Shown here in pieces: positions 12,517-62,839 of a stretch of DNA of 64,000 nucleotides; position 1 is the first letter of the stretch, and each line of letters begins with the position of its first letter. Source of the DNA: a virus. Lineage: Duplodnaviria > Heunggongvirae > Uroviricota > Caudoviricetes. Location: IMG/VR virus record IMGVR_UViG_3300005918_000018; one strand, written 5' to 3'. Below the pieces are notes generated by a model that made no database searches, was not told the origin of the DNA, and saw only the letters and a list, made by a program, of their open reading frames with translations. A program made the translations under genes and the position numbers.

Positions 12517-12600
12517 TGGGGTAGTGTCGGAACTGGTATACGAGCTGGTCTCAGAAATCAGTGCTGTAATGGCATGTGGGTTCGAATCCCACCTACCCCA
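12517..12600 (+). tRNA. tRNA-Leu(CAG), type II
   Basis: Acceptor GGGGTAG/CTACCCC. Anticodon stem CTGGT/ATCAG with loop CTCAGAA. T-loop GGGTTCGAATCCCAC. Confidence 0.7.
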
Positions 12601-12687
12601 ATTCAACGAAGATCAAACCACCTCTACGTGGTGTTGAGTATCAACTGGATTCTTAATTGAATTTAGGCTAAGAGTTTGATCAATTTG

Positions 12688-12773
12688 GACATGCGGTGAA
12701 GTTGGAGAGTCACGCCAGACTGTAAATCTGGTCCCTTCGGGGTGAGTAGGTTCGATTCCTACCATGTCCACCA
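12688..12773 (+). tRNA. tRNA-Tyr(GUA), type II
   Basis: Acceptor GGACATG/CATGTCC. Anticodon loop CTGTAAA. Variable arm TCCCTTCGGGGTGA. CCA encoded. Confidence 0.75.
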
Positions 12774-12777
12774 ATTT

Positions 12778-12863
12778 GGAGGTATAGACCACTATGGAGA
12801 TGGGACGGGTTGTAGCCCCGTTGCCTTATGGCCAGCAAGGTTCGATTCCTTGTACCTCCACCA
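12778..12863 (+). tRNA. tRNA, type II, atypical D/anticodon region (GUA-like)
   Basis: Acceptor GGAGGTA/TACCTCC plus CCA. T-arm CAAGG-TTCGATT-CCTTG. Anticodon loop TTGTAGC is only tentative. Confidence 0.45.
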
Positions 12864-12867
12864 TTTT

Positions 12868-12958
12868 GGGGAACGCATGGGAAGCAGAAGAGTCCCGTCA
12901 GGAATTGTACACCTGATCCTGTAAAGGTTAGTAGGTTTGAATCCTACCGTCCCCACCA
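12868..12958 (+). tRNA. tRNA-like, long-arm, unassigned
   Basis: T-arm GTAGG-TTTGAAT-CCTAC with 3' CGTCCCCACCA. The acceptor pairs imperfectly. Confidence 0.35.
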
Positions 12959-13162
12959 TTTTTTTAACATCCTGATTAAAGGGTTTGGTATATCAGGCAT
13001 TCCAAATTGCCGTCTGACAATATTCTTTAATCTTCTGGAACCTTTTTTATCAAGCCAGGTAAAGAACTCAATAGTTTCAACCCATTCATAATAATCTTTT
13101 TCAGTAAGCATAAGAACCTCCTTGTTAAGTAAACGAATAGGGATTGAGTAAATAAATAATTT

Positions 13163-13250
13163 GGAAGATTGGCCCAATGGTAAGGCAGCAGGTTGCTACC
13201 CTGTACAGGTGAAATACCCTGTCCGAGTTCGATTCCCGGATCTTCCGCCA
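13163..13250 (+). tRNA. tRNA-Ser(GCU), type II
   Basis: Acceptor GGAAGAT/ATCTTCC. Anticodon loop TTGCTAC. Variable arm ACAGGTGAAATACCCTGT. Confidence 0.7.
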
Positions 13251-13255
13251 TTTAA

Positions 13256-13341
13256 TGTCACTGTGTCGGAATTGGTATACGAGCTGGCTTGAGGAGTCAG
13301 TGCCTTCGGGCATGAGGGTTCGACCCCCTCCAGTGACACCA
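13256..13341 (+). tRNA. tRNA-Leu(GAG), type II
   Basis: Acceptor GTCACTG/CAGTGAC. Anticodon stem CTGGC/GTCAG with loop TTGAGGA. Confidence 0.7.
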
Positions 13342-13346
13342 TTTAC

Positions 13347-13436
13347 GGAGAGATCGTCGGGATTGGTAGCCCGTGCTTGTTTGGAAAACAAGTTGGCCGA
13401 AAGGTTATGTGGATTCGAATTCCTCTCTCTCCTCCA
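13347..13436 (+). tRNA. tRNA-Ser(GGA), type II
   Basis: Acceptor GGAGAGA/TCTCTCC. Anticodon stem CTTGT/ACAAG with loop TTGGAAA. Confidence 0.65.
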
Positions 13437-13513
13437 TTTTTACAGGCTATTTGTAAGTTTCTCGGTATAGTATCAGAACGTAAGCTATAAGTTCTATACA
13501 AGGAGAATACGAA

Positions 13514-14236
13514 ATGCCCAAGAAAACAAAGAAAAAACAGACACCTAAATTAAAGAAAGCCTCAAAAAAGAAAGAAACTCCGGTTAGGGAAATCACACTT
13601 GATGATTTCCCCCCAGTTGAAGAAGTTATTAAAATTGAGGACCTGTTTAAAATAAGAAGTTTTTCACGTCTGAAAGAACCTCTCAGTGATGTGGAGAGGT
13701 ATCAGATAAGACTTTTGAGATCTGCTAAGGTTAAAATACCCTTTACTGAGGAAGGTGCTGTTAATATTTATGCCGTTGAAGACTTAATGAGTTCTTTCCA
13801 CTGTCACATGAATCCTGAAGAGGATGGTTGGAGTCAAGCTCTAGTAGATATGGCATTTAAAGACGGGACTATCTTCAAACTTAGTTTCCGAAATATCATA
13901 AACCTCTTGAAAACAGGTGATGGGGTTAAGTTTAACGTAGAACAAAAAGATTTATGGAAATTCATGTCTATGGCTTTCCATAATGGAGCTTTGATGAGTA
14001 TGAGTCTAAATGATGTGATGGTTATCATAAAAGCCTTTAAAAAGACCCCAGACTTTTTCAAATCCAGTAAAGTTCCAAAAGCTATCATGAAATTTAGAAC
14101 CCGTAAAAATAACCTTATTCAAGGTTTGAAGGTAGTTCTAACTCTGGGTGCTATATCAAGCCACAAATGTCATTGTGATTCACATGATGATGGTAGATAT
14201 GGAATAAACAGCCGTGTTATCCATCCAATAAAATAA
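13514..14236 (+). CDS. hypothetical protein (Lys-rich N-terminus)
   Basis: 240 aa. GGAG RBS. Confidence 0.5.
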   Translation: MPKKTKKKQTPKLKKASKKKETPVREITLDDFPPVEEVIKIEDLFKIRSFSRLKEPLSDVERYQIRLLRSAKVKIPFTEEGAVNIYAVEDLMSSFHCHMNPEEDGWSQALVDMAFKDGTIFKLSFRNIINLLKTGDGVKFNVEQKDLWKFMSMAFHNGALMSMSLNDVMVIIKAFKKTPDFFKSSKVPKAIMKFRTRKNNLIQGLKVVLTLGAISSHKCHCDSHDDGRYGINSRVIHPIK

Positions 14237-14243
14237 AATAAAT

Positions 14244-14319
14244 GCCTCGTGAGCTAGTGCGGTCATAGCGTTCCGTTGAAGCCGGAAAGAAATCCGTTCG
14301 ACTCGGGTACGGGGCACCA
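14244..14319 (+). tRNA. tRNA-Phe(GAA), copy 1 (divergent)
   Basis: Acceptor GCCTCGT/ACGGGGC plus A-CCA. Anticodon stem TTCCG/CGGAA with loop TTGAAGC. Confidence 0.55.
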
Positions 14320-14323
14320 TTAT

Positions 14324-14398
14324 GGGGGCGGCTCTGGGTAAGCACGTTGGACTCCAAATCCGACGGTTTGGAAAGTTCGATTCTTTCCGTCCCTGCCA
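14324..14398 (+). tRNA. tRNA-like, anticodon CCA (Trp-like), atypical D-arm
   Basis: Anticodon stem TTGGA/TCCGA with loop CTCCAAA. T-arm GAAAG-TTCGATT-CTTTC. D-stem is not resolvable. Confidence 0.4.
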
Positions 14399-14532: not shown

Positions 14533-14608
14533 CCCTAGATAGCTCAGTCGGTAGAGCACTGCACTGAAAATGCAGGAGTCACCTGTTCAATTCAGGTTCT
14601 AGGGGCCA
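14533..14608 (+). tRNA. tRNA-Phe(GAA), canonical
   Basis: D-arm TAGCTCAGTCGGTAGAGCA. Anticodon stem CTGCA/TGCAG with loop CTGAAAA. T-loop GTTCAATTC. CCA encoded. Confidence 0.8.
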
Positions 14609-14830: not shown

Positions 14831-15598
14831 ATGAAAATAGATGATAACATTTTCAAATCCATCGTGGAATCCAGTTATTCAATTAGGCAGGTGATTCTAA
14901 AATCAGGGTTAATTCCTGCTGGTGGTAATTATGTAACGATTAAGAACCGAATTGCAGCTTTGGATTTGGATTCCTCTCATTTTCGAGGTCAGGGGTGGCT
15001 GAAAGGTTTGAAAAAACCTTATGGGAATCCTCGAACAAAAGCACTAAAAGAAATTTTTGATACTTATGAGAATTACCCATCACATAGGTTAAAAAATAGG
15101 CTTTTTAAAGAGGGTTTAAAACAAAAAAAATGTAATATGTGTGGACTTAGTATGTGGAATGGTGATGCTATAGCTTTAGAACTTCACCATCTGGATGGGG
15201 ATAAGAAAAATAATAATTTAAGTAATCTTCAGATACTATGTCCAAATTGTCATGCAACTACCAATAATTATAGAGGTAAAGGGGTAAAAACTAAGTATGA
15301 GACGTTATGTTCTGATTGTAGTAAGCCTATCCAACACAGTTCTTTACGTTGCATATCTTGCGTAAAAGAGTCAAAAAAACCGACCCCTGTTTGTTCTAAG
15401 TGTGGAAAACAGGTTAGCAAAAAATCAAGTTTATGTCGTTCTTGTTATAATGACAAAGAAAAATTAAAAAGTAACAAACCTCTTTTTGAAGTCTTAAAAA
15501 AAGATATAGAGGAGTTAAATTATACAGGGGCTGGGAAAAAATATGGTGTTTCAGATAACACAATTAGGAAATGGTTAATATCATATAAGCCTGGGTGA
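14831..15598 (+). CDS. HNH homing endonuclease
   Basis: 'HHLDGDKKNNNLSNLQILCPNCH' is an HNH motif. RBS AGGAGG sits before the second Met (the listed ORF starts at 14798). The last codons (..KPG) and the TGA stop are encoded by the 5' acceptor of the downstream tRNA. Confidence 0.8.
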   Translation: MKIDDNIFKSIVESSYSIRQVILKSGLIPAGGNYVTIKNRIAALDLDSSHFRGQGWLKGLKKPYGNPRTKALKEIFDTYENYPSHRLKNRLFKEGLKQKKCNMCGLSMWNGDAIALELHHLDGDKKNNNLSNLQILCPNCHATTNNYRGKGVKTKYETLCSDCSKPIQHSSLRCISCVKESKKPTPVCSKCGKQVSKKSSLCRSCYNDKEKLKSNKPLFEVLKKDIEELNYTGAGKKYGVSDNTIRKWLISYKPG

Positions 15599-15665
15599 TG
15601 GAACTGGTATACATGTTCGACTTAAAATTGAAATTGTGCGGGTTCGAATCCCGCCCTAGGCACCA
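15589..15665 (+). tRNA. tRNA with anticodon UAA (Leu-like, short variable arm)
   Basis: Acceptor GCCTGGG/CCTAGGC. Anticodon stem TTCGA/TTGAA with loop CTTAAAA. T-arm GCGGG-TTCGAAT-CCCGC. CCA encoded. Confidence 0.65.
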
Positions 15666-15672: not shown

Positions 15673-15756
15673 GCCTGAATGATGGAATTGGAAGACATGC
15701 TGGTTTTAGGAACCAGTGCCTTGTGCGTGTCGGTTCGAGTCCGACTTCGGGTACCA
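15673..15756 (+). tRNA. tRNA-Leu(UAG), type II
   Basis: Anticodon stem CTGGT/ACCAG with loop TTTAGGA. Variable arm TGCCTTGTGCGT. T-arm GTCGG-TTCGAGT-CCGAC. Confidence 0.7.
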
Positions 15757-16110: not shown

Positions 16111-16177
16111 TTTATTTTCCTTTGTTATTTCACAAAACCTATTTAAGGTTTCTATAATGTCTTTATTGGCTGAGTGT

Positions 16178-16254
16178 TGGAACTGGTAGACAAGCCTGAC
16201 TCAAACTCAGGTGCCCTTCGGGGCGTGAGGGTTCGAGTCCCTCCTTAGCCACCA
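16178..16254 (+). tRNA. tRNA-Leu(CAA), type II
   Basis: Acceptor GGCTGAG/CTTAGCC. Anticodon stem CCTGA/TCAGG with loop CTCAAAC. Variable arm TGCCCTTCGGGGCGT. Confidence 0.7.
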
Positions 16255-16383
16255 TTTCGTTTTTCATGGGTATCATAGTTTGTAGTTATTTTGATTACTG
16301 TTATAAAGTTATATAAAATATAATTTGCAATATGTATCCTATTGTCATTATCTATTGATACGTACCTCATAAGGAGATGCTAC

Positions 16384-17859
16384 ATGATAATTTGGCAAAA
16401 GCGTGAAATACAGATTTTGAAATTATTAGCTCCTTACGTAAAAAACAACATCGTTACTTATATCCTTAACTCTTTATTCAAAACAGATAGGACTGCCCAG
16501 TCTATTACAGATAAGAAACGCCGTCTGGGTGTTATAACTAAAAGTTCTGATTTTCAGGGTGCTTTGGATGCCGTAAAGGAAAGCACCCTTCCTGAAACTC
16601 TGAAAAAACGTGTAGTAATTGCTTTTACGAAAGCAACTAAGAAACAAAGTCCTCTGAAAGAACGAAAAAAACAATATGAAATAAAAAATGACCAGAACTA
16701 CTCTGTGTTAGAACAAGGGTCAGCTATCAAACCAAACTCGTTGGAGGAGATGGTAGAGATTTTCGACATCGACCAAGATGTTTGGACTGTAGATAGATAT
16801 GCCGTTAACCGTTGGGATCAGGCTCAGAAGACTCCGACAGGAGCTAAAGTGATTCCCTTGTATCAGATCAAAGTCTGGCTTATACGAACAGACCCCATTG
16901 TTTATAAATGGCCTGCTGTTCAACCAATTAGCTGTGACAAATTTACTTTCAAGAAACCAAAACCTCCAAAGGCTGGGAAGAAACTACGGAAAGCTATTAT
17001 AATCCCGGATGCCCAGATTACTTATAGACGTGATGCTGAAACTGGATACCTTGACCCGACTCATGATCGTGAAGCTTTTGATGTTATCTGCCAGATTGCA
17101 GAAAAAGAAAAACCGGACGACATTATTCTTCTGGGTGATATGCTTGATTTACCTGATTGGTCTGACAAGTTCCTCATCACTCCTGATTTAGTAGCTACAA
17201 CTCAACCTTCCCTATTGGAATTTCATTGGTGGTTACAACGATTGGTGGGCATCACTCCTCATGTTGTTTACTTGGAAGGTAATCACGAAATGAGACTCGA
17301 GAAAGCTGTTGCTCGTAATCTGGTAGCAGCCAGCGGGTTGAAACCTGCTAACCAACCATCAGGACCTTCTGCAATGAGTGTCCGAAACCTGTTAGGTTTA
17401 GATGAGTTAGGTGTTGAATACATAGGCCCATATCCTCAAGGGGAATACTGGATCAATGATAATCTGAAAGCTCAACATGGTAATACAGTCCGACAAGGTT
17501 CTGGTGCTACAGTAGCAAGCTGTATAAAAGACCTTTTTGTATCAACCATCTTTGGTCATATTCACCGAGTAGAACATGCTTCTAAACTCCGATGGGCTAA
17601 AAAGACTGCTTGTATACAAGCGGTATCTCCTGGAACGATTGCTCGGTTAGATCCGGGGATAGTTCCTTCAAACACAGCTCGTCAGAATTGGCAGAACGGT
17701 TTTGCTATCGTAAATTATGAACCGGGTGATGGAGCTTTCAATATTAATGTTGTCCCCATCATCGAAGGTAAATGTATTTACAGAGATCAAACGTGGGTAG
17801 GAAAAAGCCCCGTTAAAAAGATTGCTGTTGATACCGGACGTAAGGCTTTTGTAAAGTAA
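16384..17859 (+). CDS. calcineurin-like metallophosphoesterase
   Basis: 'LLGDMLDLPDW' and 'GNHE' are MPE motifs II and III. AAGGAG RBS before the second Met. Confidence 0.7.
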   Translation: MIIWQKREIQILKLLAPYVKNNIVTYILNSLFKTDRTAQSITDKKRRLGVITKSSDFQGALDAVKESTLPETLKKRVVIAFTKATKKQSPLKERKKQYEIKNDQNYSVLEQGSAIKPNSLEEMVEIFDIDQDVWTVDRYAVNRWDQAQKTPTGAKVIPLYQIKVWLIRTDPIVYKWPAVQPISCDKFTFKKPKPPKAGKKLRKAIIIPDAQITYRRDAETGYLDPTHDREAFDVICQIAEKEKPDDIILLGDMLDLPDWSDKFLITPDLVATTQPSLLEFHWWLQRLVGITPHVVYLEGNHEMRLEKAVARNLVAASGLKPANQPSGPSAMSVRNLLGLDELGVEYIGPYPQGEYWINDNLKAQHGNTVRQGSGATVASCIKDLFVSTIFGHIHRVEHASKLRWAKKTACIQAVSPGTIARLDPGIVPSNTARQNWQNGFAIVNYEPGDGAFNINVVPIIEGKCIYRDQTWVGKSPVKKIAVDTGRKAFVK

Positions 17860-17974: not shown

Positions 17975-18406
17975 ATGGCTACAGATACAAAGAGTAAAGG
18001 TGATCGGACGGAAGGAATTTTTTTAGCAGAAATGCTAAAAAAAAGCATCCCTGTTCTTTTACCTTTTGGAGATAACCAAAGGTATGATCTTGTGATTGAT
18101 GTAGGAGGTCAACTCCTAAAAATACAATGTAAAACAGGTCGTTTTAGGGATGGTGTTATTATGTTTAATACCTGTAGCTCCCACGCTCACAGAGGTGGTG
18201 GCTCCCGTTCTTATAGAGGGGATATAGATTATTTTGGGGTTCATTGCCCATACAATGATTCCGTTTACATGATTCCTGTTGAAAATGCCCCTTTACGGAG
18301 GATGTCCATGCGTTTGGAGGCTCCTAAAAATAATCAGAAAACTGGAATTCATTATGCTGTAAGGTACGAGCTGGAAAAAACTCTTTTAAGTATAAGATCA
18401 CTCTAA
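17975..18406 (+). CDS. PD-(D/E)XK-like nuclease (putative homing endonuclease)
   Basis: 143 aa. 'RYDLVIDVGGQLLKIQCKT' fits the D..(D/E)xK pattern. Sits between the tRNA 5' duplicate and the intact tRNA-Thr. Confidence 0.5.
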   Translation: MATDTKSKGDRTEGIFLAEMLKKSIPVLLPFGDNQRYDLVIDVGGQLLKIQCKTGRFRDGVIMFNTCSSHAHRGGGSRSYRGDIDYFGVHCPYNDSVYMIPVENAPLRRMSMRLEAPKNNQKTGIHYAVRYELEKTLLSIRSL

Positions 18407-18465: not shown

Positions 18466-18541
<76 letters not shown>

Positions 18542-18566: not shown

Positions 18567-18998
18567 ATGTGTAAACATCCAAATATGTTCCAACAAGCTG
18601 TTATTCTAGCAGTTGCAGCTCATCAAGACCAAGTGGATAAGTCAGGAGTTCCTTATATCCTTCATCCGATGGTAGTGGCCAGCAGATGTGAAACTGAGGA
18701 TGAGAGGGTCGTTGCTGTCCTTCACGATATAGTGGAAGATACTGAGATCACTTCAGAAAGCCTTATGGATCTCTTCCCAGATCGTATCGTTAAAGCTGTA
18801 GATGCTATCACACACCGTAAAGGTGAGCCTTACGATCAGTATATTGAAAGAGTGTTAAAAAACTTTACTGCTACTCAGGTGAAAATTCAGGATGTTGGTC
18901 ATAATATGGAACGTATAGATTTCATTAAGGACCAACAAACTAAAGAACGGTTGATTGGTAAATATAAATATGCTTTGGAAATTTTGATAAAAAAATAA
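18567..18998 (+). CDS. HD-domain (p)ppGpp hydrolase-like (SpoT/Mesh1-type small HD)
   Basis: 'AAHQDQVDKSGVPYILHP...LHDIVEDT' matches the HD motif of the SpoT hydrolase domain. Confidence 0.65.
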   Translation: MCKHPNMFQQAVILAVAAHQDQVDKSGVPYILHPMVVASRCETEDERVVAVLHDIVEDTEITSESLMDLFPDRIVKAVDAITHRKGEPYDQYIERVLKNFTATQVKIQDVGHNMERIDFIKDQQTKERLIGKYKYALEILIKK

Positions 18999-19000: not shown

Positions 19001-19075
19001 GCCAGCTTGGCTCAACGGTAGAGCACCTGTTTCGTAATCAGGATGTTGTCGGTTCGATTCCGACAGTTGGCTCCA
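19001..19075 (+). tRNA. tRNA-Thr(CGU)
   Basis: Acceptor GCCAGCT/AGTTGGC. Anticodon loop TTCGTAA. T-arm GTCGG-TTCGATT-CCGAC. CCA encoded. Confidence 0.7.
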
Positions 19076-19981: not shown

Positions 19982-20494
19982 ATGAAAAGAGCCATCTACG
20001 CAGGTTCCTTTGACCCTATTACTAAAGGTCACATAGATATCATTCAAAGGGCTATGAAACTGTTCGACCAACTCATTGTCGTAGTTGCCCAGAACTCAGC
20101 CAAGAAAACAATGTTTAATGTGGATAAAAGAATAAGAATGATTAGAAAAGCAGTTTTAATGGACTGCTTAAAAGATGTAGGGGGGATTAAAGTAATGTCT
20201 CTCCCTGAAGGGGAAATGTTGGTTAATTTTGCAGCAAAACATAACGCCTGTGCTATGATTCGTGGTCTCAGGCCGGTTCAGGATTTTCCTGGAGAGTTTT
20301 CTCTGGCCAGTATTAACCGTCGGATAGCACCTTCAATTGAAACGGTTATGTTAATTACCGACCCCTCAGTATCTGAGGTTTCTTCCAGTATGGTAAAAGA
20401 ACTGGTAGCTTTAGGAGGCCCGTATGAACAATTTGTTCCAGAAAATGTGGCAACGGATTTACGGGTTTGGAAAGAATCCCAAGATGTCAAGTAA
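19982..20494 (+). CDS. coaD: phosphopantetheine adenylyltransferase
   Basis: 'AIYAGSFDPITKGHIDII' is the (H/T)xGH nucleotidyltransferase motif of PPAT. Length 170 aa is typical. Confidence 0.8.
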   Translation: MKRAIYAGSFDPITKGHIDIIQRAMKLFDQLIVVVAQNSAKKTMFNVDKRIRMIRKAVLMDCLKDVGGIKVMSLPEGEMLVNFAAKHNACAMIRGLRPVQDFPGEFSLASINRRIAPSIETVMLITDPSVSEVSSSMVKELVALGGPYEQFVPENVATDLRVWKESQDVK

Positions 20495-20918: not shown

Positions 20919-20995
20919 GCGTTCGTAGCTCAGATGGATAGAGTATCAGCCTCCGAAGTTGAGGGTCGAGGGTTCGAGCCCCTCCGGGCGTACCA
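20919..20995 (+). tRNA. tRNA-Arg(CCG)
   Basis: D-arm TAGCTCAGATGGATAGAGT. Anticodon stem TCAGC/GTTGA with loop CTCCGAA. T-arm GAGGG-TTCGAGC-CCCTC. CCA encoded. The acceptor has several G-U pairs. Confidence 0.6.
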
Positions 20996-21312: not shown

Positions 21313-21400
21313 TGGAAGCAATCCGGCTGGATGAGGAGCTTGTTTCGAAAACAAGTAGGCGGGCAACCGTCTGAGGGTTCGAGTCCTTCTGCTTCCGCCA
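21313..21400 (+). tRNA. tRNA-Ser(CGA), type II
   Basis: Acceptor GGAAGCA/TGCTTCC. Anticodon stem CTTGT/ACAAG with loop TTCGAAA. Long variable arm. CCA encoded. Confidence 0.7.
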
Positions 21401-24914: not shown

Positions 24915-25268
24915 TGGTGGAGCCGGAGGGTATCGAACCCTCGTCCAAAATAAATTCCTTAACAGATACTACATGCTTATTCCGTTACCTTTTTTCCACT
25001 CATGCGGAACGGACAAATCTTCTGAGTGGGTTGTTTAGAGTTTTGGTTCTCGGCTAATATGCCTCTAACGATACATATAATGCCCAGTCTTCCTGTCTCT
25101 GATGCCCTGACCTCGACCCGGAGACCCGATCAAGCAGGACAAGCAGCTTATGCTGCTATTGCTAATTCCGTGTTGGCAATTAAAAGTTTGGTCTATTTTT
25201 ACGTAGCCTAGACTAACTACGACATGCATCCGTCAGCTTCATTACCCTGTCGAATCCAGTTCGGCCCC
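24915..25268 (-). ncRNA. ssrA: tmRNA (ssrA), tag peptide (A)ANTELAIAA
   Basis: The 5' end GGGGCCGAACTGGATTCGACAGGG closely matches the tmRNA 5' consensus GGGGCUGAUUCUGGAUUCGACGGG. The 3' end has a tRNA-like T-arm GAGGGTTCGATACCCTC plus CGGCTCCACCA, which pairs with the 5' GGGGCCG. The internal reading frame GCC AAC ACG GAA TTA GCA ATA GCA GCA TAA (25148-25177) gives a tag ending in AIAA. Confidence 0.8.
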
Positions 25269-30437: not shown

Positions 30438-30456
30438 CTATGTCGGCTTACCCTAG

Positions 30457-49381: not shown

Positions 49382-49467
49382 TTTCATAAATTGGAGCAGC
49401 TGTCCGGATTCGAACCGGAACCTCTGGATTTGCAATCCAGCGTCTTTGCCATTTTGACCACAGCTGC
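49382..49467 (-). tRNA. tRNA-Cys(GCA)
   Basis: Minus-strand read GCAGCTGTGGTCAAAATGGCAAAGACGCTGGATTGCAAATCCAG..CCGGTTCGAATCCGGACAGCTGCTCCA. Confidence 0.7.
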
Positions 49468-49468: not shown

Positions 49469-49542
49469 TGGTGACAGGAGAGGAATTTGAATCCACAACC
49501 TCTCGAATATGAGTCGAGGGCTCTACCATTGAGCTATCCTGC
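49469..49542 (-). tRNA. tRNA-Met(CAU) copy 2
   Basis: Minus-strand read GGCAGGATAGCTCAATGGTAGAGCCCTCGACTCATATTCGAG..TGGATTCAAATTCCTCTCCTGTCACCA. Confidence 0.7.
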
Positions 49543-52640: not shown

Positions 52641-52659
52641 AACATTTCCTTTTAAAAAT

Positions 52660-52733
52660 GGTGGAGCTTGTCGGGCTCGAACCGACCACCTTCTGCGTGC
52701 AAGGCAGACGCTCTTCCAGATGAGCTAAAGCCC
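52660..52733 (-). tRNA. tRNA-Ala(UGC)
   Basis: Minus-strand read GGGGCTTTAGCTCATCTGGAAGAGCGTCTGCCTTGCACGCAGA..GTCGGTTCGAGCCCGACAAGCTCCACCA. Confidence 0.75.
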
Positions 52734-52736
52734 CGA

Positions 52737-52944: not shown

Positions 52945-53523
52945 TCATGGTGTATACATTCCTCTATGTTCTTCCAAGAACTCATTAGTACCATGTCGAG
53001 TATCTTTACCCGATAAAATATCTTTTAATCGGCGGTCGTATAATATTACGTTCACGGCAGCAGCCAAATTCAGGCAATGGGCTGTCGGAATCGTCACGAA
53101 ACTGTGTGCCCAGTTCAGAACCGACTTTGGTAATGACCCGTCTTCTGGCCCAAAGATATAAAGAGCATTCTCTGGGTGTTCAAAGTGTACCAGATTTTCC
53201 GAGTTCGGTCGAACTTCTATGGCCACAGGGGTCACATCAATTTTATCAAAAGCTTTCCAATATTGATCATTGTGAATAACTTCTACTTTTTGATAACCCT
53301 TCATCCGTTCCTCCCGTGGGAGTCGGCTGAGGTCATCCAATTTATCAATCACTCGGTCTCCTGTGAACCAAAGCTGGTTCATTCCCCAACAGGAACAGGC
53401 TCTTAGAGCATTGCCTACGTTGTGTGGGTCACGGGGATTAATGAGAAGGACTCCTGGTGGCACCGGTGTTCGTTTCTTCATCATCTCTTGGATGTATTTG
53501 GCTTTAACTGCTTTAGTGCTCAT
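52945..53523 (-). CDS. SpoU/TrmH-family RNA 2'-O-methyltransferase (SPOUT)
   Basis: 'HNVGNALRA' is motif 1. 'IFGPEDGSLP' is motif 2. 'IPTAHCLNLAAAVNVILYD' is motif 3. Confidence 0.75.
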   Translation of the reverse strand: MSTKAVKAKYIQEMMKKRTPVPPGVLLINPRDPHNVGNALRACSCWGMNQLWFTGDRVIDKLDDLSRLPREERMKGYQKVEVIHNDQYWKAFDKIDVTPVAIEVRPNSENLVHFEHPENALYIFGPEDGSLPKSVLNWAHSFVTIPTAHCLNLAAAVNVILYDRRLKDILSGKDTRHGTNEFLEEHRGMYTP

Positions 53524-56547: not shown

Positions 56548-56589
56548 TACGTTTCTCCTTACAGAGGGTTAAATGGTAGCACTGAAAAT

Positions 56590-57330
56590 ATTCAAAAATC
56601 AATATTCGTTAAATTGTTATCTCCTTAGTAGGAGGTGTTGTTTATGTTACCCTTATTTACTGACGAAGAATTTGAAAAAGCTAAGTCCAGAGAAAAACTC
56701 CCACTGAAATGTAAGCATTGCGGGAAAACTTTTTATCAAACTAAGAATCAAATTCAAGTTGGGTATTCCCCCAAGTATCATACAAAATGGGAATTCTGCT
56801 CTCCTTCCTGTATGGGTTCTTATCGGTATAAAGGTCACCGTATTGATTTTAACTGTGAACAATGTAGGAAATTATCCAGTAAGTTAAAATCTGCATATAA
56901 AAGAACAAAACATCATTTCTGTTCAAAATCTTGTTCAGCTACTTATCATAACCAAAGAAAACAAACAGGAACTCGGAGATCAAAATTTGAAGTCTGGGTT
57001 GAAAAACAACTGGTCTCCTTGTATCCAAATCTTGAGTTCCATTTTAACAAGAAAGACACCATTCAATCAGAACTAGATATCTACATCCCCTCTCTCAAGC
57101 TGGCTTTTGAGATAAATGGGGTTTTTCATTATGAACCTATCTTTGGACAAGATAAACTTGATAAGATTCAAAAAAATGAAAAAGGTAAATTTGCTGCCTG
57201 TATTGAAAAGAACATCAGTCTTTGTATTATTGACGTTAGTACTTTAAGCTACTTCAAGCCTAAAAAAGCTCAGAAGTTCCTTGACATAATTACTAATATC
57301 ATTGATCAAGCTATCAGCCTGGATTCATAA
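56590..57330 (+). repeat. dispersed paralogous cassette B
   Basis: Leader AATATTCGTTAAATTGTTATCTCCTTAGTAGGAGGTGTTG plus CDS, ~80% nt identity to cassettes A and C. Confidence 0.7.
56635..57330 (+). CDS. Zn-ribbon + putative nuclease-like protein, paralog B
   Basis: 231 aa. Same architecture as 27345..28040. Confidence 0.6.
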   Translation: MLFMLPLFTDEEFEKAKSREKLPLKCKHCGKTFYQTKNQIQVGYSPKYHTKWEFCSPSCMGSYRYKGHRIDFNCEQCRKLSSKLKSAYKRTKHHFCSKSCSATYHNQRKQTGTRRSKFEVWVEKQLVSLYPNLEFHFNKKDTIQSELDIYIPSLKLAFEINGVFHYEPIFGQDKLDKIQKNEKGKFAACIEKNISLCIIDVSTLSYFKPKKAQKFLDIITNIIDQAISLDS

Positions 57331-57377
57331 TCCAGTTTCCATCCAATGCCTCGTGGAGGCTGCTTGACATCATTGGA

Positions 57378-57450
57378 CAGCGGTGGCCGGATTCGAACCG
57401 ACGACCTGATGGGTATGAGCCACCCGAGCTGTCCTCTGCTCTACACCGCA
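57378..57450 (-). tRNA. tRNA-Met(CAU) copy 3 (no encoded CCA)
   Basis: Minus-strand read GCGGTGTAGAGCAGAGGACAGCTCGGGTGGCTCATACCCATC..GTCGGTTCGAATCCGGCCACCGCT. Confidence 0.65.
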
Positions 57451-58253: not shown

Positions 58254-58329
58254 TGGAGCGGGAGACGGGACTCGAACCCGTGGCATCTACCTTGGGAAGG
58301 TAGTACTCTACCAACTGAGTTACACCCGC
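58254..58329 (-). tRNA. tRNA-Gly(CCC)
   Basis: Minus-strand read GCGGGTGTAACTCAGTTGGTAGAGTACTACCTTCCCAAGGTAG..ACGGGTTCGAGTCCCGTCTCCCGCTCCA. Confidence 0.65.
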
Positions 58330-59030: not shown

Positions 59031-59106
59031 TGGAGCAGATAACGGGGTACGATCCCGTAGCCTTCGGATTGGCAACCCGATGCTCTACCAGTTGAGCTAT
59101 ATCTGC
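59031..59106 (-). tRNA. tRNA-Gly(GCC)
   Basis: Minus-strand read GCAGATATAGCTCAACTGGTAGAGCATCGGGTTGCCAATCCGA..ACGGGATCGTACCCCGTTATCTGCTCCA. Confidence 0.65.
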
Positions 59107-59116: not shown

Positions 59117-59192
59117 TGGATGAGGTGGAAAGGTTTGAACTTTCGACATTCGGATTCAGAGACCGATGCTCTACCAACTGAGCTACACCTCA
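59117..59192 (-). tRNA. tRNA-Gln(CUG) (tentative)
   Basis: Minus-strand acceptor TGAGGTG/CACCTCA plus T-CCA. Anticodon loop CTCTGAA. T-arm GAAAG-TTCAAAC-CTTTC. Confidence 0.55.
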
Positions 59193-59203: not shown

Positions 59204-59280
59204 TGGTACATCTGACAGGACTCGAACCTGTGGTCCCTGGTTTCGTAGACCAGTGCTTTATCCATCTAAGCTACAGATGC
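59204..59280 (-). tRNA. tRNA-Arg(ACG)
   Basis: Minus-strand read GCATCTGTAGCTTAGATGGATAAAGCACTGGTCTACGAAACCAG..CAGGTTCGAGTCCTGTCAGATGTACCA. Confidence 0.7.
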
Positions 59281-59287: not shown

Positions 59288-59587
59288 TTAGAGTAAGGAA
59301 AGTCTTCGGAAAATTTCTCCGGTATGCACGGTGGCCAGAGCAGTTACTTGGTCACCAATATCAGGTTCCCGGAACACCTTGAAAGGGATATCGTTCCCTT
59401 CCAATCGTCTCCTCCAGGTTTTCAGTTGCCTTCGGCCACTGACTCCCAAGATGATCATAGTTCCGTTCTTCCACTTTGTTTTGGGTCCTCTCAGAAGCCA
59501 CTCAGCTACGGCATGGCCGGACTGAACAACTTGCTGGGACATCGGTAAGTCCCTACGGACTAAGACGTATAATTTTTGTTCTTCCAT
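59288..59587 (-). CDS. peptidyl-tRNA hydrolase, PTH2 family
   Basis: 'VLVRRDLPMSQQVVQSGHAV' matches the Pth2 signature VxRxDLxMxxGKxxAQxxHA. Length 99 aa. Confidence 0.6.
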   Translation of the reverse strand: MEEQKLYVLVRRDLPMSQQVVQSGHAVAEWLLRGPKTKWKNGTMIILGVSGRRQLKTWRRRLEGNDIPFKVFREPDIGDQVTALATVHTGEIFRRLSLL

Positions 59588-59619
59588 TAGGAACTCCTAT
59601 AAATATTGGTACGTGATAC

Positions 59620-60359
59620 TGGGATTTAATTTCAATATTCATTAAATTGCCATCTCCTTATAGGAGGTGTTGATTATGATCCCTTTATATACCCCAGAAG
59701 AATTCGAGAATGCTAAGTCCAGAGAGAAACTCCCCATCAAATGTAAACGCTGTGGAAAAACATTTTATAAGACCAAACATGTTGTGTATATGACATTCTC
59801 AAAGACATCTACCACAAATGATTTCTGTAGCAGATTTTGTAGTTCTAAATATCTTCATGAAAGCCGCTGTGTTGATTTTGACTGTGAGCAATGTGGAAAA
59901 CACACCAGTAATATCTTATCTGAATTTAATAGAAACAAACACCATTTCTGTTCTCGGTCTTGCTCTGCTACCTATTATAACCAAAGGAAACAAACAGGAA
60001 TCCGAAGGTCAAAATTTGAAGTCTGGGTTGAAGAACAGTTGGTCTCCTTGTACCCAAATCTTGAATTTCACTTTAATAGGAAAGATACAATCCAATCGGA
60101 ACTTGATATTTATATCCCATCTCTTAAATTAGCTTTTGAGATAAATGGTATTTTCCATTATGAACCCATCTTTGGTCAAGATAAACTTGACCGAACTCAA
60201 AAGAATGAAAAAGGAAAGTTTGCAGCTTGTTTTGAAAAGAACATTAGCCTTTGTATAATTGATATTAGCACTTTAAATTATTTTAAACCAAAAAAGGCTC
60301 AAAAGTTCCTTGATATTATTACTACTATCATTGATCAAACTCTTAGCCTGGAGTCTTAA
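59620..60359 (+). repeat. dispersed paralogous cassette C
   Basis: Leader CAATATTCATTAAATTGCCATCTCCTTATAGGAGGTGTTGATT plus CDS. Confidence 0.7.
59667..60359 (+). CDS. Zn-ribbon + putative nuclease-like protein, paralog C
   Basis: 230 aa. Same architecture as paralogs A and B. Confidence 0.6.
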   Translation: MLIMIPLYTPEEFENAKSREKLPIKCKRCGKTFYKTKHVVYMTFSKTSTTNDFCSRFCSSKYLHESRCVDFDCEQCGKHTSNILSEFNRNKHHFCSRSCSATYYNQRKQTGIRRSKFEVWVEEQLVSLYPNLEFHFNRKDTIQSELDIYIPSLKLAFEINGIFHYEPIFGQDKLDRTQKNEKGKFAACFEKNISLCIIDISTLNYFKPKKAQKFLDIITTIIDQTLSLES

Positions 60360-60376
60360 TCACGCATGATTTTAAA

Positions 60377-60451
60377 TGGTACGGGAGGAGGGTTTCGAAC
60401 CCCCAGCTTCTGCCTTGTAGGGACAGATTTCTACCATTGAATTACTCCCGC
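60377..60451 (-). tRNA. tRNA-Val(UAC)
   Basis: Minus-strand read GCGGGAGTAATTCAATGGTAGAAATCTGTCCCTACAAGGCAG..GGGGGTTCGAAACCCTCCTCCCGTACCA. Confidence 0.65.
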
Positions 60452-61476: not shown

Positions 61477-61491
61477 CTTGTTACCTCACAG

Positions 61492-61731
61492 TTAAAATTG
61501 GAAAGGTTCGTCCATCTTAATCATAGCTCTAGTACCCTCTAACATCCTGCCTAATCCGTTTCTTGCTGTCAAGGATTTGTAGTCATCTACCCATAATTTA
61601 ATGAGTCCTTGTTTCGATTCAGGCTTTTTATCTAATGCTTCTCTTTCTTCATCAGAAAGAGCTTTCATACGTTTCTCATGGTTTTCATGAGAAACCTCAT
61701 AACATACTCGGTCTATACGATACATAATCGT
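61492..61731 (-). CDS. hypothetical protein
   Basis: Probable start MYRIDRV. The listed ORF extends into tRNA-Lys. Confidence 0.4.
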   Translation of the reverse strand, partial: TIMYRIDRVCYEVSHENHEKRMKALSDEEREALDKKPESKQGLIKLWVDDYKSLTARNGLGRMLEGTRAMIKMDEPFQF

Positions 61732-61749
61732 TACCTCATAGTTAAAAAA

Positions 61750-61826
61750 TGGTAGACCCAGTGGGAATCGAACCCACAACCTTCGGATTAAGAGTCCGCT
61801 GCTCTGCCTGATTGAGCTACAAGTCC
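61750..61826 (-). tRNA. tRNA-Lys(CUU)
   Basis: Minus-strand read GGACTTGTAGCTCAATCAGGCAGAGCAGCGGACTCTTAATCCGA..GTGGGTTCGATTCCCACTGGGTCTACCA. The acceptor has several G-U pairs. Confidence 0.55.
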
Positions 61827-61845
61827 ATAAAACGATTGACAAGAT

Positions 61846-61874
61846 ATTCTACCCTCGATATACAATAATTACCT
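61846..61874 (+). promoter_or_regulatory. sigma70-like promoter (TTGACA-N17-TATACA)
   Basis: TTGACAagatattctaccctcgaTATACAAT, upstream of 61904. AGGAGG RBS. Confidence 0.35.
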
Positions 61875-61903
61875 TTTGGGGTATTATATATAAGGAGGTT
61901 CTA

Positions 61904-62170
61904 ATGTCTCGAAGTTATAAAAAATCTCTTGCCGGTGTTCTACACTACGGCAGAGAAAATAAAAAAGGAAAACGAAGGACACATAAAGAATTAAGAGCTA
62001 AAGTGAGAGCTCTGATTCACCGATTGATGGGGAACCCTGAAGAAGAACATACGATCCCTGATATCCGAGATGTTCATATGAGTCCTGATAAGGATGTTCA
62101 TCAAGATGATACCCGAGAGTTCTATAACCCCTTCTTAGAAGAATTCCCAAAAAAACTAATGAAAAAATAA
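61904..62170 (+). CDS. small basic hypothetical protein
   Basis: 88 aa. AGGAGG RBS. Confidence 0.5.
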   Translation: MSRSYKKSLAGVLHYGRENKKGKRRTHKELRAKVRALIHRLMGNPEEEHTIPDIRDVHMSPDKDVHQDDTREFYNPFLEEFPKKLMKK

Positions 62171-62171
62171 A

Positions 62172-62248
62172 TGGTACCCGTGGTAGGACTCAAACCTACA
62201 ATTTTCGGAATAGAAATCCGCTGCCTTATTCAGTTAGGCTACACGGGC
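62172..62248 (-). tRNA. tRNA-Arg(UCU)
   Basis: Minus-strand read GCCCGTGTAGCCTAACTGAATAAGGCAGCGGATTTCTATTCCGA..GTAGGTTTGAGTCCTACCACGGGTACCA. Confidence 0.65.
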
Positions 62249-62253
62249 AAAAA

Positions 62254-62323
62254 TGGTGGGAATCGAACCCTTTCGAGTCCACACATCCGAAGATATGCCT
62301 GTGTTCGTCAACACAGGATTCCC
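62254..62323 (-). ncRNA. atypical tRNA-like element (70 nt)
   Basis: Perfect acceptor GGGAATC/GATTCCC plus A-CCA and a T-loop TTCGATT. The body is two perfect hairpins (CCTGTGTT-GACG-AACACAGG; CATATC-TTCG-GATGTG) rather than D and anticodon arms. Confidence 0.4.
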
Positions 62324-62329
62324 GTAAAA

Positions 62330-62407
62330 TGGTCGGGCTGCTGGGGCTTGAACCCAGAAATCTTCGGTGTAGGAGACCGCTGCTCTATCCAGTTGAGCCA
62401 CAACCCG
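62330..62407 (-). tRNA. tRNA-Arg(CCU)
   Basis: Minus-strand read CGGGTTGTGGCTCAACTGGATAGAGCAGCGGTCTCCTACACCG..CTGGGTTCAAGCCCCAGCAGCCCGACCA. Confidence 0.65.
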
Positions 62408-62408
62408 A

Positions 62409-62741
62409 TTATTTGTACTTACGAATCCCACGAAACCCTGTCATTTGGATAGGTTCGGTGTCATATAAAGGACCAGACCTTTGAATGTATTTACCTGCTG
62501 GCCATACCACACCAGTTGTTGCACATTTCCAATCATGAGGGTATTCTTTCAGCCCTACAATCCTCATCCAACCTCGAACATTACCGTTCCAGAGAAGGTA
62601 GCATTTATCTCCCACCTTCATTTCTTTTGGGAAATACCGTGTTTTGTAGTTCATACGGAACTTCCCGTCTTCTACGGCATCTAATTCTTTCTGGTAATCA
62701 TCCCAGGATATTGTTTTCGGGATTGTGACAATCCAGTCCAT
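62409..62741 (-). CDS. ASCH/PUA-like small protein (weak)
   Basis: 110 aa. 'KVGDKCYLLWNGNVRGWMRIVG' looks beta-barrel-like. Confidence 0.3.
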   Translation of the reverse strand: MDWIVTIPKTISWDDYQKELDAVEDGKFRMNYKTRYFPKEMKVGDKCYLLWNGNVRGWMRIVGLKEYPHDWKCATTGVVWPAGKYIQRSGPLYDTEPIQMTGFRGIRKYK

Positions 62742-62755
62742 GAGAACTCCTTAAA

Positions 62756-62839
62756 TGGCGGAAGAGACAGGAGTCGAACCTGCTAATGTTTTACCACCGA
62801 CGGTTTTCAAGACCGCTTCCCACCGTTAGGCTCCCTTCC
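62756..62839 (-). tRNA. tRNA-Ser(UGA), type II
   Basis: Minus-strand read GGAAGGGAGCCTAACGGTGGGAAGCGGTCTTGAAAACCGTC..GCAGGTTCGACTCCTGTCTCTTCCGCCA. Confidence 0.6.

Follow-up and report, generated by a model that had tools for sequence, protein, structure and literature searches.

Predicted theta-type ribozymes lead endonuclease cassettes at tRNA 3′ ends in the tRNA and RNA-repair region of a probable jumbo phage

Background

Why would a virus keep 36 tRNA genes and pseudogenes in the same region as a set of RNA-repair enzymes, and why should exactly three of these tRNAs end without an encoded CCA? The question is raised by a 64,000-nucleotide stretch of tailed-phage DNA (Caudoviricetes; IMG/VR record IMGVR_UViG_3300005918_000018), the whole of which is referred to here as the window. 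Large tRNA arrays are known from huge phages, which carry up to 67 tRNAs together with aminoacyl-tRNA synthetases, transfer-messenger RNA (tmRNA) and ligases for cleaved tRNAs (Al-Shayeb et al. 2020, PMC7162821). Jumbo phages combine tRNAs with RtcB or ATP-grasp ligases, HAD phosphatases of the 'Swiss-army-knife' (SAK) type, calcineurin-like and HD phosphoesterases, CCA-adding enzymes and PTH2, a combination that has been read as a counter to tRNA-cleaving host effectors (Iyer et al. 2021, PMC7824862). Theta ribozymes, which self-cleave in vitro, have been described at the 3′ ends of tRNAs, mainly in gut phages, and these tRNAs mostly lack CCA (4.5% have it) (Kienbeck et al. 2024, PMC10879173).

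With its tRNAs, RtcB, PTH2, threonyl-tRNA synthetase (ThrRS) and tmRNA, the window is a further example of the already documented jumbo-phage strategy. An initial annotation made from the sequence had noted these genes. That annotation missed three predicted self-cleaving ribozymes, similar to that of hepatitis delta virus (HDV), and the endonuclease cassettes to which two of them belong. These ribozyme-endonuclease cassettes are the part worth following up, and they are described first.

Results

Three CCA-less tRNAs and their ribozymes

An encoded CCA followed by a U-rich sequence was found in 33 of the 36 tRNAs, the exceptions being tRNA-Leu(CAG) (12518..12600, + strand), which ends at A73, tRNA-Thr(GGT) (28090..28160, − strand) and an initiator-like tRNA-Met(CAT) (57379..57450, − strand). 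All three of these CCA-less tRNAs, and no others, are linked to an HDV-like ribozyme of the theta type. Rz1 (12601..12680, +) begins directly after A73 of tRNA-Leu(CAG) and has no endonuclease gene, Rz2 (28015..28089, −) begins directly after U73 of tRNA-Thr(GGT), and Rz3 (57305..57378, −) follows the initiator-like tRNA-Met, such that ribozyme start and tRNA 3′ end meet with an offset of 0 in Rz1 and Rz2 and of 0 or −1 in Rz3, inside the ±5 nt that defines tRNA-associated theta ribozymes. The ambiguity lies in nucleotide 57378, for which both assignments, N73 of tRNA-Met and G1 of Rz3, are possible; the apparent 'UCCA' end that ARAGORN gives to this tRNA is the 5′ strand of the P1 helix of Rz3.

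The Rfam model HDV-F-prausnitzii matched Rz1 at 36.4 bits (local E = 1.3e-5) and Rz2 at 39.4 bits (local E = 2.4e-6), both under the gathering score of 44 (RF02682), and Rz3 was not reported. Since this E-value scan missed Rz3 as well as the ribozymes of L027, L102, L104 and L107 (L-numbers are labels of comparison loci from other sequences), a structural descriptor was used together with shuffled controls; it recovered Rz1 and Rz3 and gave no hits in 30 shuffles of the window. P1 (~7 bp), P1.1, P2, P3 (3 bp with a 7-nt L3) and P4 can be drawn for each of the three as a nested double pseudoknot, with a P3 loop consensus of UC(C/U)NCG(U/A). Rz3 has a G1·U37 wobble and a P3 of GCC/GGC. The catalytic cytosine occupies the first position of J4/2, which reads CUAAGA in Rz1 and Rz2 and CUGAUA in Rz3, and the corresponding column, C63, is invariant. 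Other near-matches of the L3 pattern in the window, among them GGCTAAGA at 20888, lack the rest of the fold and were rejected.

Covariation was assessed in an alignment of six equal-length sequences (A4), comprising Rz2, Rz3 and four relatives from other phages; a MAFFT alignment of eight ribozymes (A3) was discarded because of gaps misplaced in P1. In A4, 95.6% of cells are paired, 19 of the 23 pairs changed on both sides, and compensatory changes occur in every helix, while none of 500 shuffles reached the observed pairing and slid registers attained at most 41%. The pair at the cleavage site is G·U in Rz3 and A-U in Rz1 and Rz2, and across the family it is GU in four of six sequences and AU in two. 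From this fold we infer that Rz1, Rz2 and Rz3 are HDV-like ribozymes of the theta type, predicted to cleave themselves at the tRNA 3′ end.

Endonuclease cassettes at tRNA 3′ ends

Behind Rz2 and Rz3 lies a cassette with a constant architecture. Its insertion point is directly after the discriminator, N73, in place of the encoded CCA, and its far end consists of a duplicated tRNA segment, from T-loop to N73, together with the original CCA. In the tRNA-Thr(GGT) cassette, U73 and CCA are separated by ~0.8 kb containing HEG-1 (27354..28040, +), a zinc-ribbon/Vsr-like endonuclease gene assigned by PHROG 559 (E = 1e-19) and by fold. On the far side of the HEG-1 start codon, a tRNA leftover (27284..27309, −) comprises positions 51-73 and the original CCA with its trailer, and 17 nt of it, from T-loop to U73, are identical to the 3′ end of the intact tRNA. 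The tRNA-Met cassette carries HEG-3 (56644..57330, +), a paralogue of HEG-1 with 72% amino acid identity, and a decayed leftover of the tRNA-Met 3′ part (UUUGAAUAUUUUCAGUGCU-A) with CCA (56574..56599, −). Each gene runs tail to tail with its ribozyme, the last 26 nt of HEG-1 overlapping Rz2, and those of HEG-3 overlapping Rz3, on the opposite strand.

A third member, HEG-2 (59676..60359, +; 71% amino acid identity to HEG-1), is preceded by the leftover 3′ part and CCA of a lost tRNA, 'tRNA-X' (59607..59632, −). At its other end lies a 5′ stub of the same tRNA (GCGUGAU...), fused to what is the final third of a ribozyme (GGCUAAGAGUUUGAU; 60322..60365, −). The stub is complementary to AUCACGU in the leftover, the tRNA body being deleted, and only this stump of the ribozyme is kept. 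We read the HEG-2 cassette as decayed, with its tRNA apparently destroyed. Both the HEG-2 and HEG-3 cassettes end with the same conserved sequence as that of HEG-1 (...GAAUAUUG), which is followed by 23 nt of tRNA 3′ part and CCA. The 5′ ends of the three genes (27310-27356, 56600-56646 and 59633-59678, −) share a conserved leader, in which a small hairpin (CUCCU-UAGU-AGGAG) partly sequesters the Shine-Dalgarno sequence (AGGAGGUG) and may serve in translational control of the endonuclease. Rz1, having neither an endonuclease gene nor a leftover, can be read as a domesticated solo ribozyme from which the endonuclease gene was lost.

A second, unrelated endonuclease family has entered a tRNA gene from its other side. 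The PD-(D/E)XK_5 gene at 17975..18406 (+; Pfam, 126 bits) lies on the 5′ side of tRNA-Thr(TGT), and on either side of the gene stands an identical stretch of 38 nt (17853-17891 = 18455-18492), made up of the leader and positions 1-27 of this tRNA. Here there is no ribozyme, and an intact tRNA copy is kept through the partial duplication. This case fits the idea that 5′ ends of tRNAs need no help, RNase P recognizing shape, whereas 3′ ends do.

Presence/absence polymorphism and recurrence in other phages

Three comparison loci, L005 (ThrRS 93% identical), L006 and L008, carry an uninterrupted tRNA-Thr(GGT) with CCA and UUUU directly before the same downstream gene, so that the cassette present in the window is absent from all three, HEG-1 included in the case of L005. 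The reciprocal situation exists at the tmRNA gene, which is intact in the window and interrupted in L005. In the latter (11754-12420, +), the tmRNA gene contains an HDV-like ribozyme (11776-11846) and a same-strand open-reading frame (ORF) of 186 amino acids with an HNH_3-like motif, whose end falls within a second copy of the tmRNA 3′ part (from T-loop to acceptor) with a CCA behind it. In the ARAGORN output this duplication wrongly appears as another tmRNA, of the permuted type.

The order tRNA, ribozyme, antisense endonuclease, together with a 16-20-nt repeat of T54-N73, recurs in L050, L062, L099, L102/103, L104/105 and L107, and L027 has the same order without the repeat. Three of these loci (L050, L062, L099) came from a ribozyme pattern scan of IMG/VR, all three with a 17-20-nt repeat and a homologue of the endonuclease that is 47-55% identical; a strict version of the ribozyme pattern had only one IMG/VR match. 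When 14 loci were picked by endonuclease homology alone, 12 had the endonuclease gene tail to tail with a tRNA and within ~100 nt of its 3′ end, and four (L027, L102, L104, L107) had a complete HDV-like ribozyme. In three of these four, the 16-20-nt T54-N73 repeat is present with CCA on the far copy, and two further loci have decayed repeats. The bounds of the repeat are constant, starting at the T-loop (UUCGA...) and ending at N73.

The endonuclease family comprises 2110 clusters, none of them annotated, and many members are on contigs of 200-444 kb; in IMG/VR, relatives occur on viral contigs as long as 446 kb. Two Cys4 zinc ribbons are invariant, as are D148, E159 and K185. PHROG 559 and 3339 carry the label 'HNH/homing endonuclease' (E = 1e-19), and no nuclease match for the protein was found in Pfam. 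The best Foldseek matches of the C-terminal domain are the Vsr-like nuclease domains of PvuRts1I and AbaSI (probability 1.0), for which reason the 'HNH' label is probably loose. A PDB sequence search with the endonuclease returned only spurious repeat matches to designed beta-propellers.

The tRNA and tmRNA complement

With default settings, ARAGORN found 32 tRNAs and one tmRNA between 12517 and 62407, and Rfam at its gathering threshold found 31 tRNAs and the tmRNA, the latter at 159 bits. Three further intergenic tRNAs, Trp(CCA), Ser(CGA) and Ser(TGA), were called by ARAGORN at a relaxed threshold and fell below the Rfam threshold (33-39 bits, tRNA-Sec model); all have NCCA ends and are tRNA-like by eye. 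The total is thus 36 tRNA genes or pseudogenes, namely 32 canonical, three credible non-canonical and one degenerate Tyr-like copy, which agrees in number and outer coordinates with the large complement claimed by the initial annotation; at least one of the four non-canonical members is probably a pseudogene. T-loop motifs are correspondingly abundant, with 64 matches observed against 23.6 ± 5.3 expected. Isoacceptor sets are complete for Leu, Ser, Arg and Thr. Long variable arms had been assigned to the Leu, Ser and Tyr tRNAs, and this is so in general, except that Leu(TAA) has none.

Unless stated otherwise, the following genes were found by both ARAGORN and Rfam. On the + strand, tRNA-Leu(CAG) is followed by three tandem Tyr(GTA) genes, the first (12687..12773) with an encoded CCA, the second (12778..12863) divergent at 33.8 bits, and the third (12866..12958; relaxed ARAGORN) degenerate and a probable pseudogene. 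Their variable arms differ, and their anticodon loops are CUGUAAA, UUGUAGC and a 9-nt loop with GUA. These copies are of possible interest because the Septu defense system cleaves the variable loop of tRNA-Tyr (PMC13096335). Next come Ser(GCT) (13163..13250), Leu(GAG) (13257..13341), Ser(GGA) (13347..13436; in Rfam only below threshold), Phe(GAA) copy 1 (14244..14319), the non-canonical Trp(CCA) (14322..14398; Rfam 33.1 bits, below threshold; relaxed ARAGORN) and Phe(GAA) copy 2 (14533..14608). Leu(TAA) (15589..15665) is the 77-nt species without the long arm; its D-arm is like that of the remaining Leu tRNAs, and its first 10 nt are overlapped by an upstream HNH_3 ORF (14798-15598). It is followed by Leu(TAG) (15673..15756), Leu(CAA) (16168..16254), a canonical Thr(TGT) (copy 1, 18466..18541), Thr(CGT) copy 1 (19001..19075), Arg(CCG) (20919..20995) and the non-canonical Ser(CGA) (21314..21400; Rfam below threshold; relaxed ARAGORN).

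The − strand carries the tmRNA (24915..25268; ARAGORN and Rfam; RF00023, 159 bits against a gathering score of 47), with its tag reading frame (ANTELAIAA) and an uninterrupted 3′ end, GGCUCCACCA. Between it and ThrRS stands tRNA-Thr(GGT), the sole GGT isoacceptor in the window (63.8 bits), and a second Thr(TGT) copy (28163..28238; ARAGORN), which is aberrant in having A1-U72, A73 and C37. The counterparts of this copy in L005, L006 and L008 are canonical, as is the copy at 18466, and it is either decaying after duplication or has an altered anticodon loop. With Thr(CGT) copy 2 (30372..30447) on the other side, ThrRS is flanked by all three tRNA-Thr isoacceptors, and the module tRNA-Thr(CGT), ThrRS, tRNA-Thr(TGT), tRNA-Thr(GGT) is kept in relatives whose ThrRS is 67-93% identical. 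The remaining − strand genes are Arg(TCG) (45118..45194), a CAT tRNA (48923..48999), Cys(GCA) (49392..49467), another CAT tRNA (49469..49543), Gln(TTG) (50309..50382), which is spanned entirely by a same-strand HNH_3 and HTH ORF (50301-51170), Ala(TGC) (52659..52734), the initiator-like Met, Gly(CCC) (58254..58329), Gly(GCC) (59031..59106), Gln(CTG) (59117..59192), Arg(ACG) (59204..59280), Val(TAC) (60377..60451), Lys(CTT) (61750..61826), Arg(TCT) (62172..62248), Arg(CCT) (62330..62407) and the non-canonical Ser(TGA) (62756..62839; Rfam 39.3 bits, below threshold; relaxed ARAGORN). All three CAU tRNAs that the initial annotation distributed over elongator, initiator and Ile2 roles are present. 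The one at 57379..57450 (ARAGORN and Rfam) is initiator-like by its U1×U72 mismatch and A11:U24, with two of the three anticodon-stem G:C pairs of bacterial initiators and a discriminator that is uncertain owing to Rz3, and each of the other two may be elongator Met or Ile2.

Two tRNA-like elements had also been noted, most likely those at 14612-14758 (+) and 62250-62328 (−). The former, between tRNA-Phe and an HNH_3 gene, contains a 7-bp hairpin as well as two T-arm-like motifs (GGUUCGAUACC and GGUUCGAAUCC). That it might be a tRNA of permuted or split form was rejected, the fold being no better than that of shuffles (z = −1.2), and the segment is probably tRNA debris. The latter is a tRNA-shaped RNA, spaced as a tRNA would be from its two neighbors, tRNA-Arg(CCT) and tRNA-Arg(TCT). 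It has an acceptor-like stem of 7 bp (GGGAAUC/GAUUCCC), three hairpins with tetraloops, one of them UUCG, and a 3′ ACCA, and it lacks an anticodon, D and T loop. Its fold (minimum free energy −33.2 kcal/mol, z = −4.6) makes up 82% of the ensemble, and the RNA might act as a decoy or as a substrate for processing. A match to abiF RNA at 14411-14459 (−) reached 35.9 bits against a gathering score of 37 and coincides with a terminator-like hairpin after tRNA-Trp; it is probably not an abiF RNA.

Translation and RNA-repair proteins

The maintenance and repair proteins named in the initial annotation were all recovered by profile or fold searches. ThrRS (28253..30223, −; TIGR00418, 668 bits against a cutoff of 384) has three Pfam domains, the class II core, the anticodon-binding domain and a second additional domain. 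The phage ThrRS and its nearest metagenomic relatives have no Pfam match to the TGS domain (PF02824), unlike nearly all cellular homologues listed. RtcB (39390..40799, +) matches its Pfam model at 284 bits over positions 1-426 of 426 and conserves the entire active site by comparison with Pyrococcus horikoshii RtcB (D95, C98, N202, H203, H234, H329 and H404). It is a divergent, archaeal-like RtcB, below the NCBIfam equivalog cutoff (130 bits against 407 for PRK09588). The SpoU-family 2′-O-methyltransferase (52945..53523, −) scored 69 bits, which is below the cutoffs for TrmJ, TrmL and RlmB. The PTH2-fold protein of 99 amino acids (59288..59587, −) passes its Pfam cutoff narrowly (24.4 bits against 23), and in an alignment-based AlphaFold model (pLDDT 96) its top 14 PDB matches are all PTH2 structures, with TM scores of up to 0.78. 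Its family conserves R-x-D-L, Q..HA and F-x-E-P-D..TA and is shorter than the 115-120 amino acids of solved PTH2 structures. Canonical PTH2 has G-K and D-A-G-x-T at the places of R-x-D-L and F-x-E-P-D..TA. CoaD (19982..20494, +; TIGR01510, 163 bits against 103), counted as part of the same toolkit, is a true pantetheine-phosphate adenylyltransferase with no known tRNA role.

Three proteins are candidates for the healing of RNA ends. A stand-alone HAD phosphatase of the SAK RNA-repair type (10956..11549, −; Pfam HAD_SAK_1, 49 bits against 25.6) is a candidate 3′-phosphatase, and a metallophosphoesterase of 505 amino acids (16342..17859, +; PHROG 20266, E = 2e-45; weak Pfam Metallophos match) is a candidate esterase for cyclic phosphates or 3′-phosphates; PDB sequence searches with these two proteins gave nothing useful. 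An HD-domain protein (18567..18998, +) resembles small alarmone hydrolases (Pfam HD_4; TIGR00691 partial), matching the hydrolase part of RelA/SpoT only. The MBL-fold hydrolase at 21460-22473 was rejected as RNase Z, scoring 36 bits against a cutoff of >250, and is not an equivalog. A Ro60/Y-RNA module, suggested by a VWA protein and a weak YrlA match, was likewise discarded, there being no TROVE domain and the YrlA match being simply a tRNA.

The source genome

The exact HEG-1 and ThrRS proteins both occur on a contig of 402,136 bp, and we infer from these sequence matches that the window is part of a phage genome of at least 402 kb, above the 200 kb that marks a jumbo phage. Phage-like genes in the window include GroEL (PHROG, E = 7e-98), an endolysin-like protein, dUTPase, dNMP kinase, dCMP deaminase and RNase HII, together with at least nine homing-endonuclease-like genes; among the latter are HNH at 51402-51776, HNH_5 at 43724-44269 and LAGLIDADG at 38520-39332, directly upstream of RtcB. 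No capsid, portal or terminase gene was found within the 64-kb window, a megablast search with 24 kb of it gave no match in the phage collection, and a ThrRS search of IMG/VR found no relative. The RtcB neighborhood was seen again in three other samples. The nearest cellular ThrRS homologues are 50-54% identical and are spread over the Bacillota, so that no host can be inferred from ThrRS. The phage is environmental (non-gut), uses the standard genetic code and has a GC content of ~41%. CpG codons are strongly avoided in all ORFs of the window (GCG 1% of Ala, CGC 3% of Arg, TCG 5% of Ser, ACG 9% of Thr).

Two further genes deserve mention. A UxaA/altronate-dehydratase-like enzyme (25349-27262, −), an unusual auxiliary gene for a phage, is split into an N-terminal ORF of 223 amino acids and one of 413 amino acids (GD_AH_second and GD_AH_C, 212 bits); it lies between tRNA-Thr and tmRNA, a position kept in L005, L006 and L008. 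A protein of 269 amino acids (47557-48366, −) has PHROG 6660, of unknown function, as its sole database match, Pfam being empty. Its N-terminus, EIERRWLV, resembles that of CYTH (triphosphate tunnel) enzymes.

Discussion

A mechanism for the cassettes

The explanation that we favor, and hold with moderate confidence, is that a jumbo-phage region of tRNA and RNA-repair genes has been colonized by mobile ribozyme-endonuclease cassettes that target tRNA 3′ ends, with the ribozyme sparing the tRNA. An endonuclease cassette would land after N73, replace the encoded CCA, and leave a T-loop-to-N73 duplicate with the original CCA beyond it. The ribozyme, as first element of the insertion, would then sever the transcript immediately behind N73 and detach the tRNA from the antisense sequence of the endonuclease gene, such that the invaded gene could still yield a tRNA. 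Cleavage by HDV chemistry leaves a 2′,3′-cyclic phosphate and a 5′-hydroxyl. The released tRNA would bear this cyclic phosphate and no CCA, and would for that reason require dephosphorylation and then a CCA-adding enzyme, which would have to be that of the host or one encoded elsewhere in the genome, as the window holds none. Dephosphorylation might be carried out by the local HAD, metallophosphoesterase and HD candidates or by the HD domain of the host CCA-adding enzyme. The most likely task of RtcB would be the one suggested for other jumbo phages, the resealing of tRNAs that metal-independent RNases of the host have cut. The ribozymes would also constitute an internal source of cyclic-phosphate ends and CCA-less tRNAs, and thereby a second possible reason for an end-healing toolkit.

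Several observations weigh against this explanation. Rz1 and Rz2 begin with A1-U37 instead of the usual G1·U37 wobble, although A1 is also found in L050 and L095. Cleavage by Rz3 would fall after U72 unless its P1 is of 6 bp and G57378 is the discriminator, and as the cut would otherwise leave tRNA-Met one nucleotide short, this tRNA may be defective. RtcB is 4-9 kb from the nearest tRNA and in a different operon, neither a CCA-adding enzyme nor a clear 2′,3′-cyclic phosphodiesterase was identified within the window, and the assignment of the HAD, metallophosphoesterase and HD proteins goes no further than the family. The fold match of the endonuclease is modest (Foldseek E = 1.5e-3, TM ~0.3). 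Classical homing through double-strand breaks makes no target duplications such as the T54-N73 repeat. Finally, endonuclease relatives adjoin CCA-less tRNAs without a ribozyme in L026, L106, L108 and L109, and CCA-bearing tRNAs in L100 and L112; as some relatives adjoin tRNAs without one, the ribozyme must be seen as optional, not obligatory.

Alternative explanations

The initial annotation took the tRNA set and RtcB chiefly as a counter to host anticodon nucleases, among them PrrC-, RloC- and VapC-like enzymes, with phage tRNAs replacing cleaved ones, RtcB resealing them, and PTH2 and tmRNA rescuing jammed ribosomes; the ribozymes and endonucleases would then be incidental. VapC-type (PIN) cuts are not known to be substrates of RtcB. 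As the chief explanation we give counter-defense a considerable chance, if a somewhat less than even one. RtcB with every catalytic residue, the confirmed PTH2 fold and the presence of an SAK-type HAD, a metallophosphoesterase and an HD protein speak for it, the combination being so interpreted by Iyer et al. (PMC7824862), as do the three divergent tandem Tyr copies, the Thr(TGT) copy with C37 and an altered acceptor end, and a tRNA copy number that ignores phage codon use. Septu is also reported to cleave the variable loop of tRNA-Tyr, and a homing endonuclease to amplify phage anti-defense loci (PMC13096335). The idea nevertheless proceeds from gene content; RtcB stands apart from the tRNAs, those tRNAs that are aberrant may equally be decaying duplicates, and the existence of exactly three CCA-less tRNAs is left unexplained. 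Counter-defense is compatible with the cassette explanation and not exclusive of it. The classical explanation of phage tRNAs, that they serve codons frequent in the phage and poorly decoded by the host, draws some support from the ~41% GC content and the strong avoidance of CpG codons, and appears unlikely when the anticodon set is compared with phage codon use, since tRNA copy number does not follow codon frequencies. The window has tRNAs for the rarest codons, such as ACG at 9% of Thr (two CGT and two TGT tRNAs), TCG at 5% of Ser (with its own tRNA) and CGG at 11% of Arg, and none for the commonest, AAA, GAA, GAT and ATT; this partial comparison covers the 64-kb window, beyond which the array probably continues, and the codon use of the phage. 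Complete isoacceptor families, in place of a selected few, and tRNAs for rare codons speak for a phage that does not depend on the tRNAs of its host, and not for simple codon compensation; we accordingly take phage translation to be largely independent of the host pool.

Other alternatives concern the ribozymes and the DNA itself. The ribozyme-like sequences might match by chance, form hairpins of the terminator kind or be dead remains of insertion, and the CCA-less tRNAs might be pseudogenes, as the Rfam scores of 36-39 bits against 44, the failure of Rfam to detect Rz3, the A1 of Rz1 and Rz2, the irregular Rz3 junction and the relatives without a ribozyme could suggest. Set against these are a complete double pseudoknot with compensatory changes in every helix, a strict descriptor that finds nothing in shuffled sequence, a catalytic cytosine in all, and a start that is always within 1 nt of N73; Rz1 has stayed intact after loss of its endonuclease, and tRNA-Thr(GGT), at 63.8 bits, is the only GGT isoacceptor. 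We therefore regard non-functional ribozymes as improbable, a little more so than codon compensation. That the region is not phage at all, and comes instead from a bacterial chromosome or a megaplasmid with a tRNA-rich island, would agree with the lack of structural phage genes in the window and of a DNA match in the phage collection, and some large plasmids do carry similar gene sets (Al-Shayeb et al., PMC7162821). This seems very unlikely given the phage-type GroEL (PHROG, E = 7e-98), the endolysin-like protein, dUTPase, dNMP kinase and dCMP deaminase, the nine or more homing-endonuclease-like genes, and the relatives of the endonuclease on viral contigs in IMG/VR that reach 446 kb.

Implications and comparison with known systems

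The cassettes place in physical linkage three things that have been described separately, namely theta ribozymes at tRNA 3′ ends, homing endonucleases in phage tRNA clusters, and RNA end-healing enzymes. We found no literature in which homing endonucleases and HDV-like ribozymes are brought together at the tRNA genes of phages. Extending the cassette explanation beyond the window, we lean, at slightly better than even chances, toward a general model in which theta ribozymes are not free-standing tRNA-processing devices but the host-sparing module of widespread endonuclease cassettes that invade tRNA and tmRNA 3′ ends in large phages. The cassette would duplicate the T-loop-to-N73 segment and discard the CCA, the ribozyme would restore the tRNA 3′ end, and the result would select for end-healing and CCA-adding functions. 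If true, this model would give theta ribozymes an evolutionary rationale, that of rendering a selfish insertion harmless, and would explain their origin, their patchy distribution and their CCA-less partners; they would be a bacterial-virus counterpart of the ribozyme of the R2 retrotransposon. More theta ribozymes would then be expected beside the 2110 unannotated endonuclease family members. The phage would offer a natural system in which a tRNA passes through a 2′,3′-cyclic-phosphate intermediate before CCA addition, and the cassettes could supply compact self-processing tRNA expression units for synthetic biology, where ribozyme-trimmed tRNA arrays are reportedly already being engineered (PMC12381190).

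The broader gene complement is like that of jumbo and huge phages (PMC7824862, PMC7162821) in its dozens of tRNAs, tmRNA, aminoacyl-tRNA synthetase, RtcB, PTH2, SAK-type HAD and calcineurin-like and HD phosphoesterases, and differs from those described in having no close DNA relative in the phage collection and in a ThrRS flanked by three cognate isoacceptors, a module kept in relatives. The ribozymes share with published theta ribozymes (PMC10879173) the HDV-like double pseudoknot, a cut site abutting the tRNA 3′ end, the CCA-less tRNAs and an occurrence in tailed phages. Unlike those, they come from an environmental, probably jumbo, phage with the standard code and no suppressor tRNAs, their P4 is longer than in the minimal motif, and RtcB is present where a DRB0094-type ligase was enriched. 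Above all, they lead endonuclease cassettes with the T54-N73 repeat, whereas that paper mentions no HNH or homing endonuclease and no mobile context. As selfish genes within a tRNA array that show presence/absence polymorphism, the cassettes resemble the free-standing homing endonucleases of phage tRNA clusters, such as SegB of T4 (PMC2330249, PMC13096335). They differ from SegB in their zinc ribbons and Vsr-like domain, where SegB has GIY-YIG, and in insertion inside the tRNA 3′ end with partial tRNA duplication and a ribozyme, and cleavage and homing are here predicted from the genes.

The closest parallels in logic lie outside these phage systems. R2 and other non-LTR (long terminal repeat) retrotransposons carry a 5′ HDV-like ribozyme that cuts the co-transcript exactly at the junction with a structural RNA gene (see also PMC11331408), and the cassettes are like R2 in being mobile elements within a structural RNA gene with an HDV-like ribozyme at the upstream boundary. 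They are unlike it in lacking a reverse transcriptase and, in the window, in having the gene of the element antisense to the ribozyme; this orientation suggests that the ribozyme serves the invaded tRNA and not the mRNA of the element. The variants in L005 and L001 are same-strand and closer to R2. The cassettes also resemble homing endonucleases housed in introns and inteins, in that a selfish nuclease travels with a device that makes its insertion harmless. Where introns and inteins rely on splicing, however, the cassettes would employ self-cleavage and target duplication, with a product that needs end repair and CCA addition.

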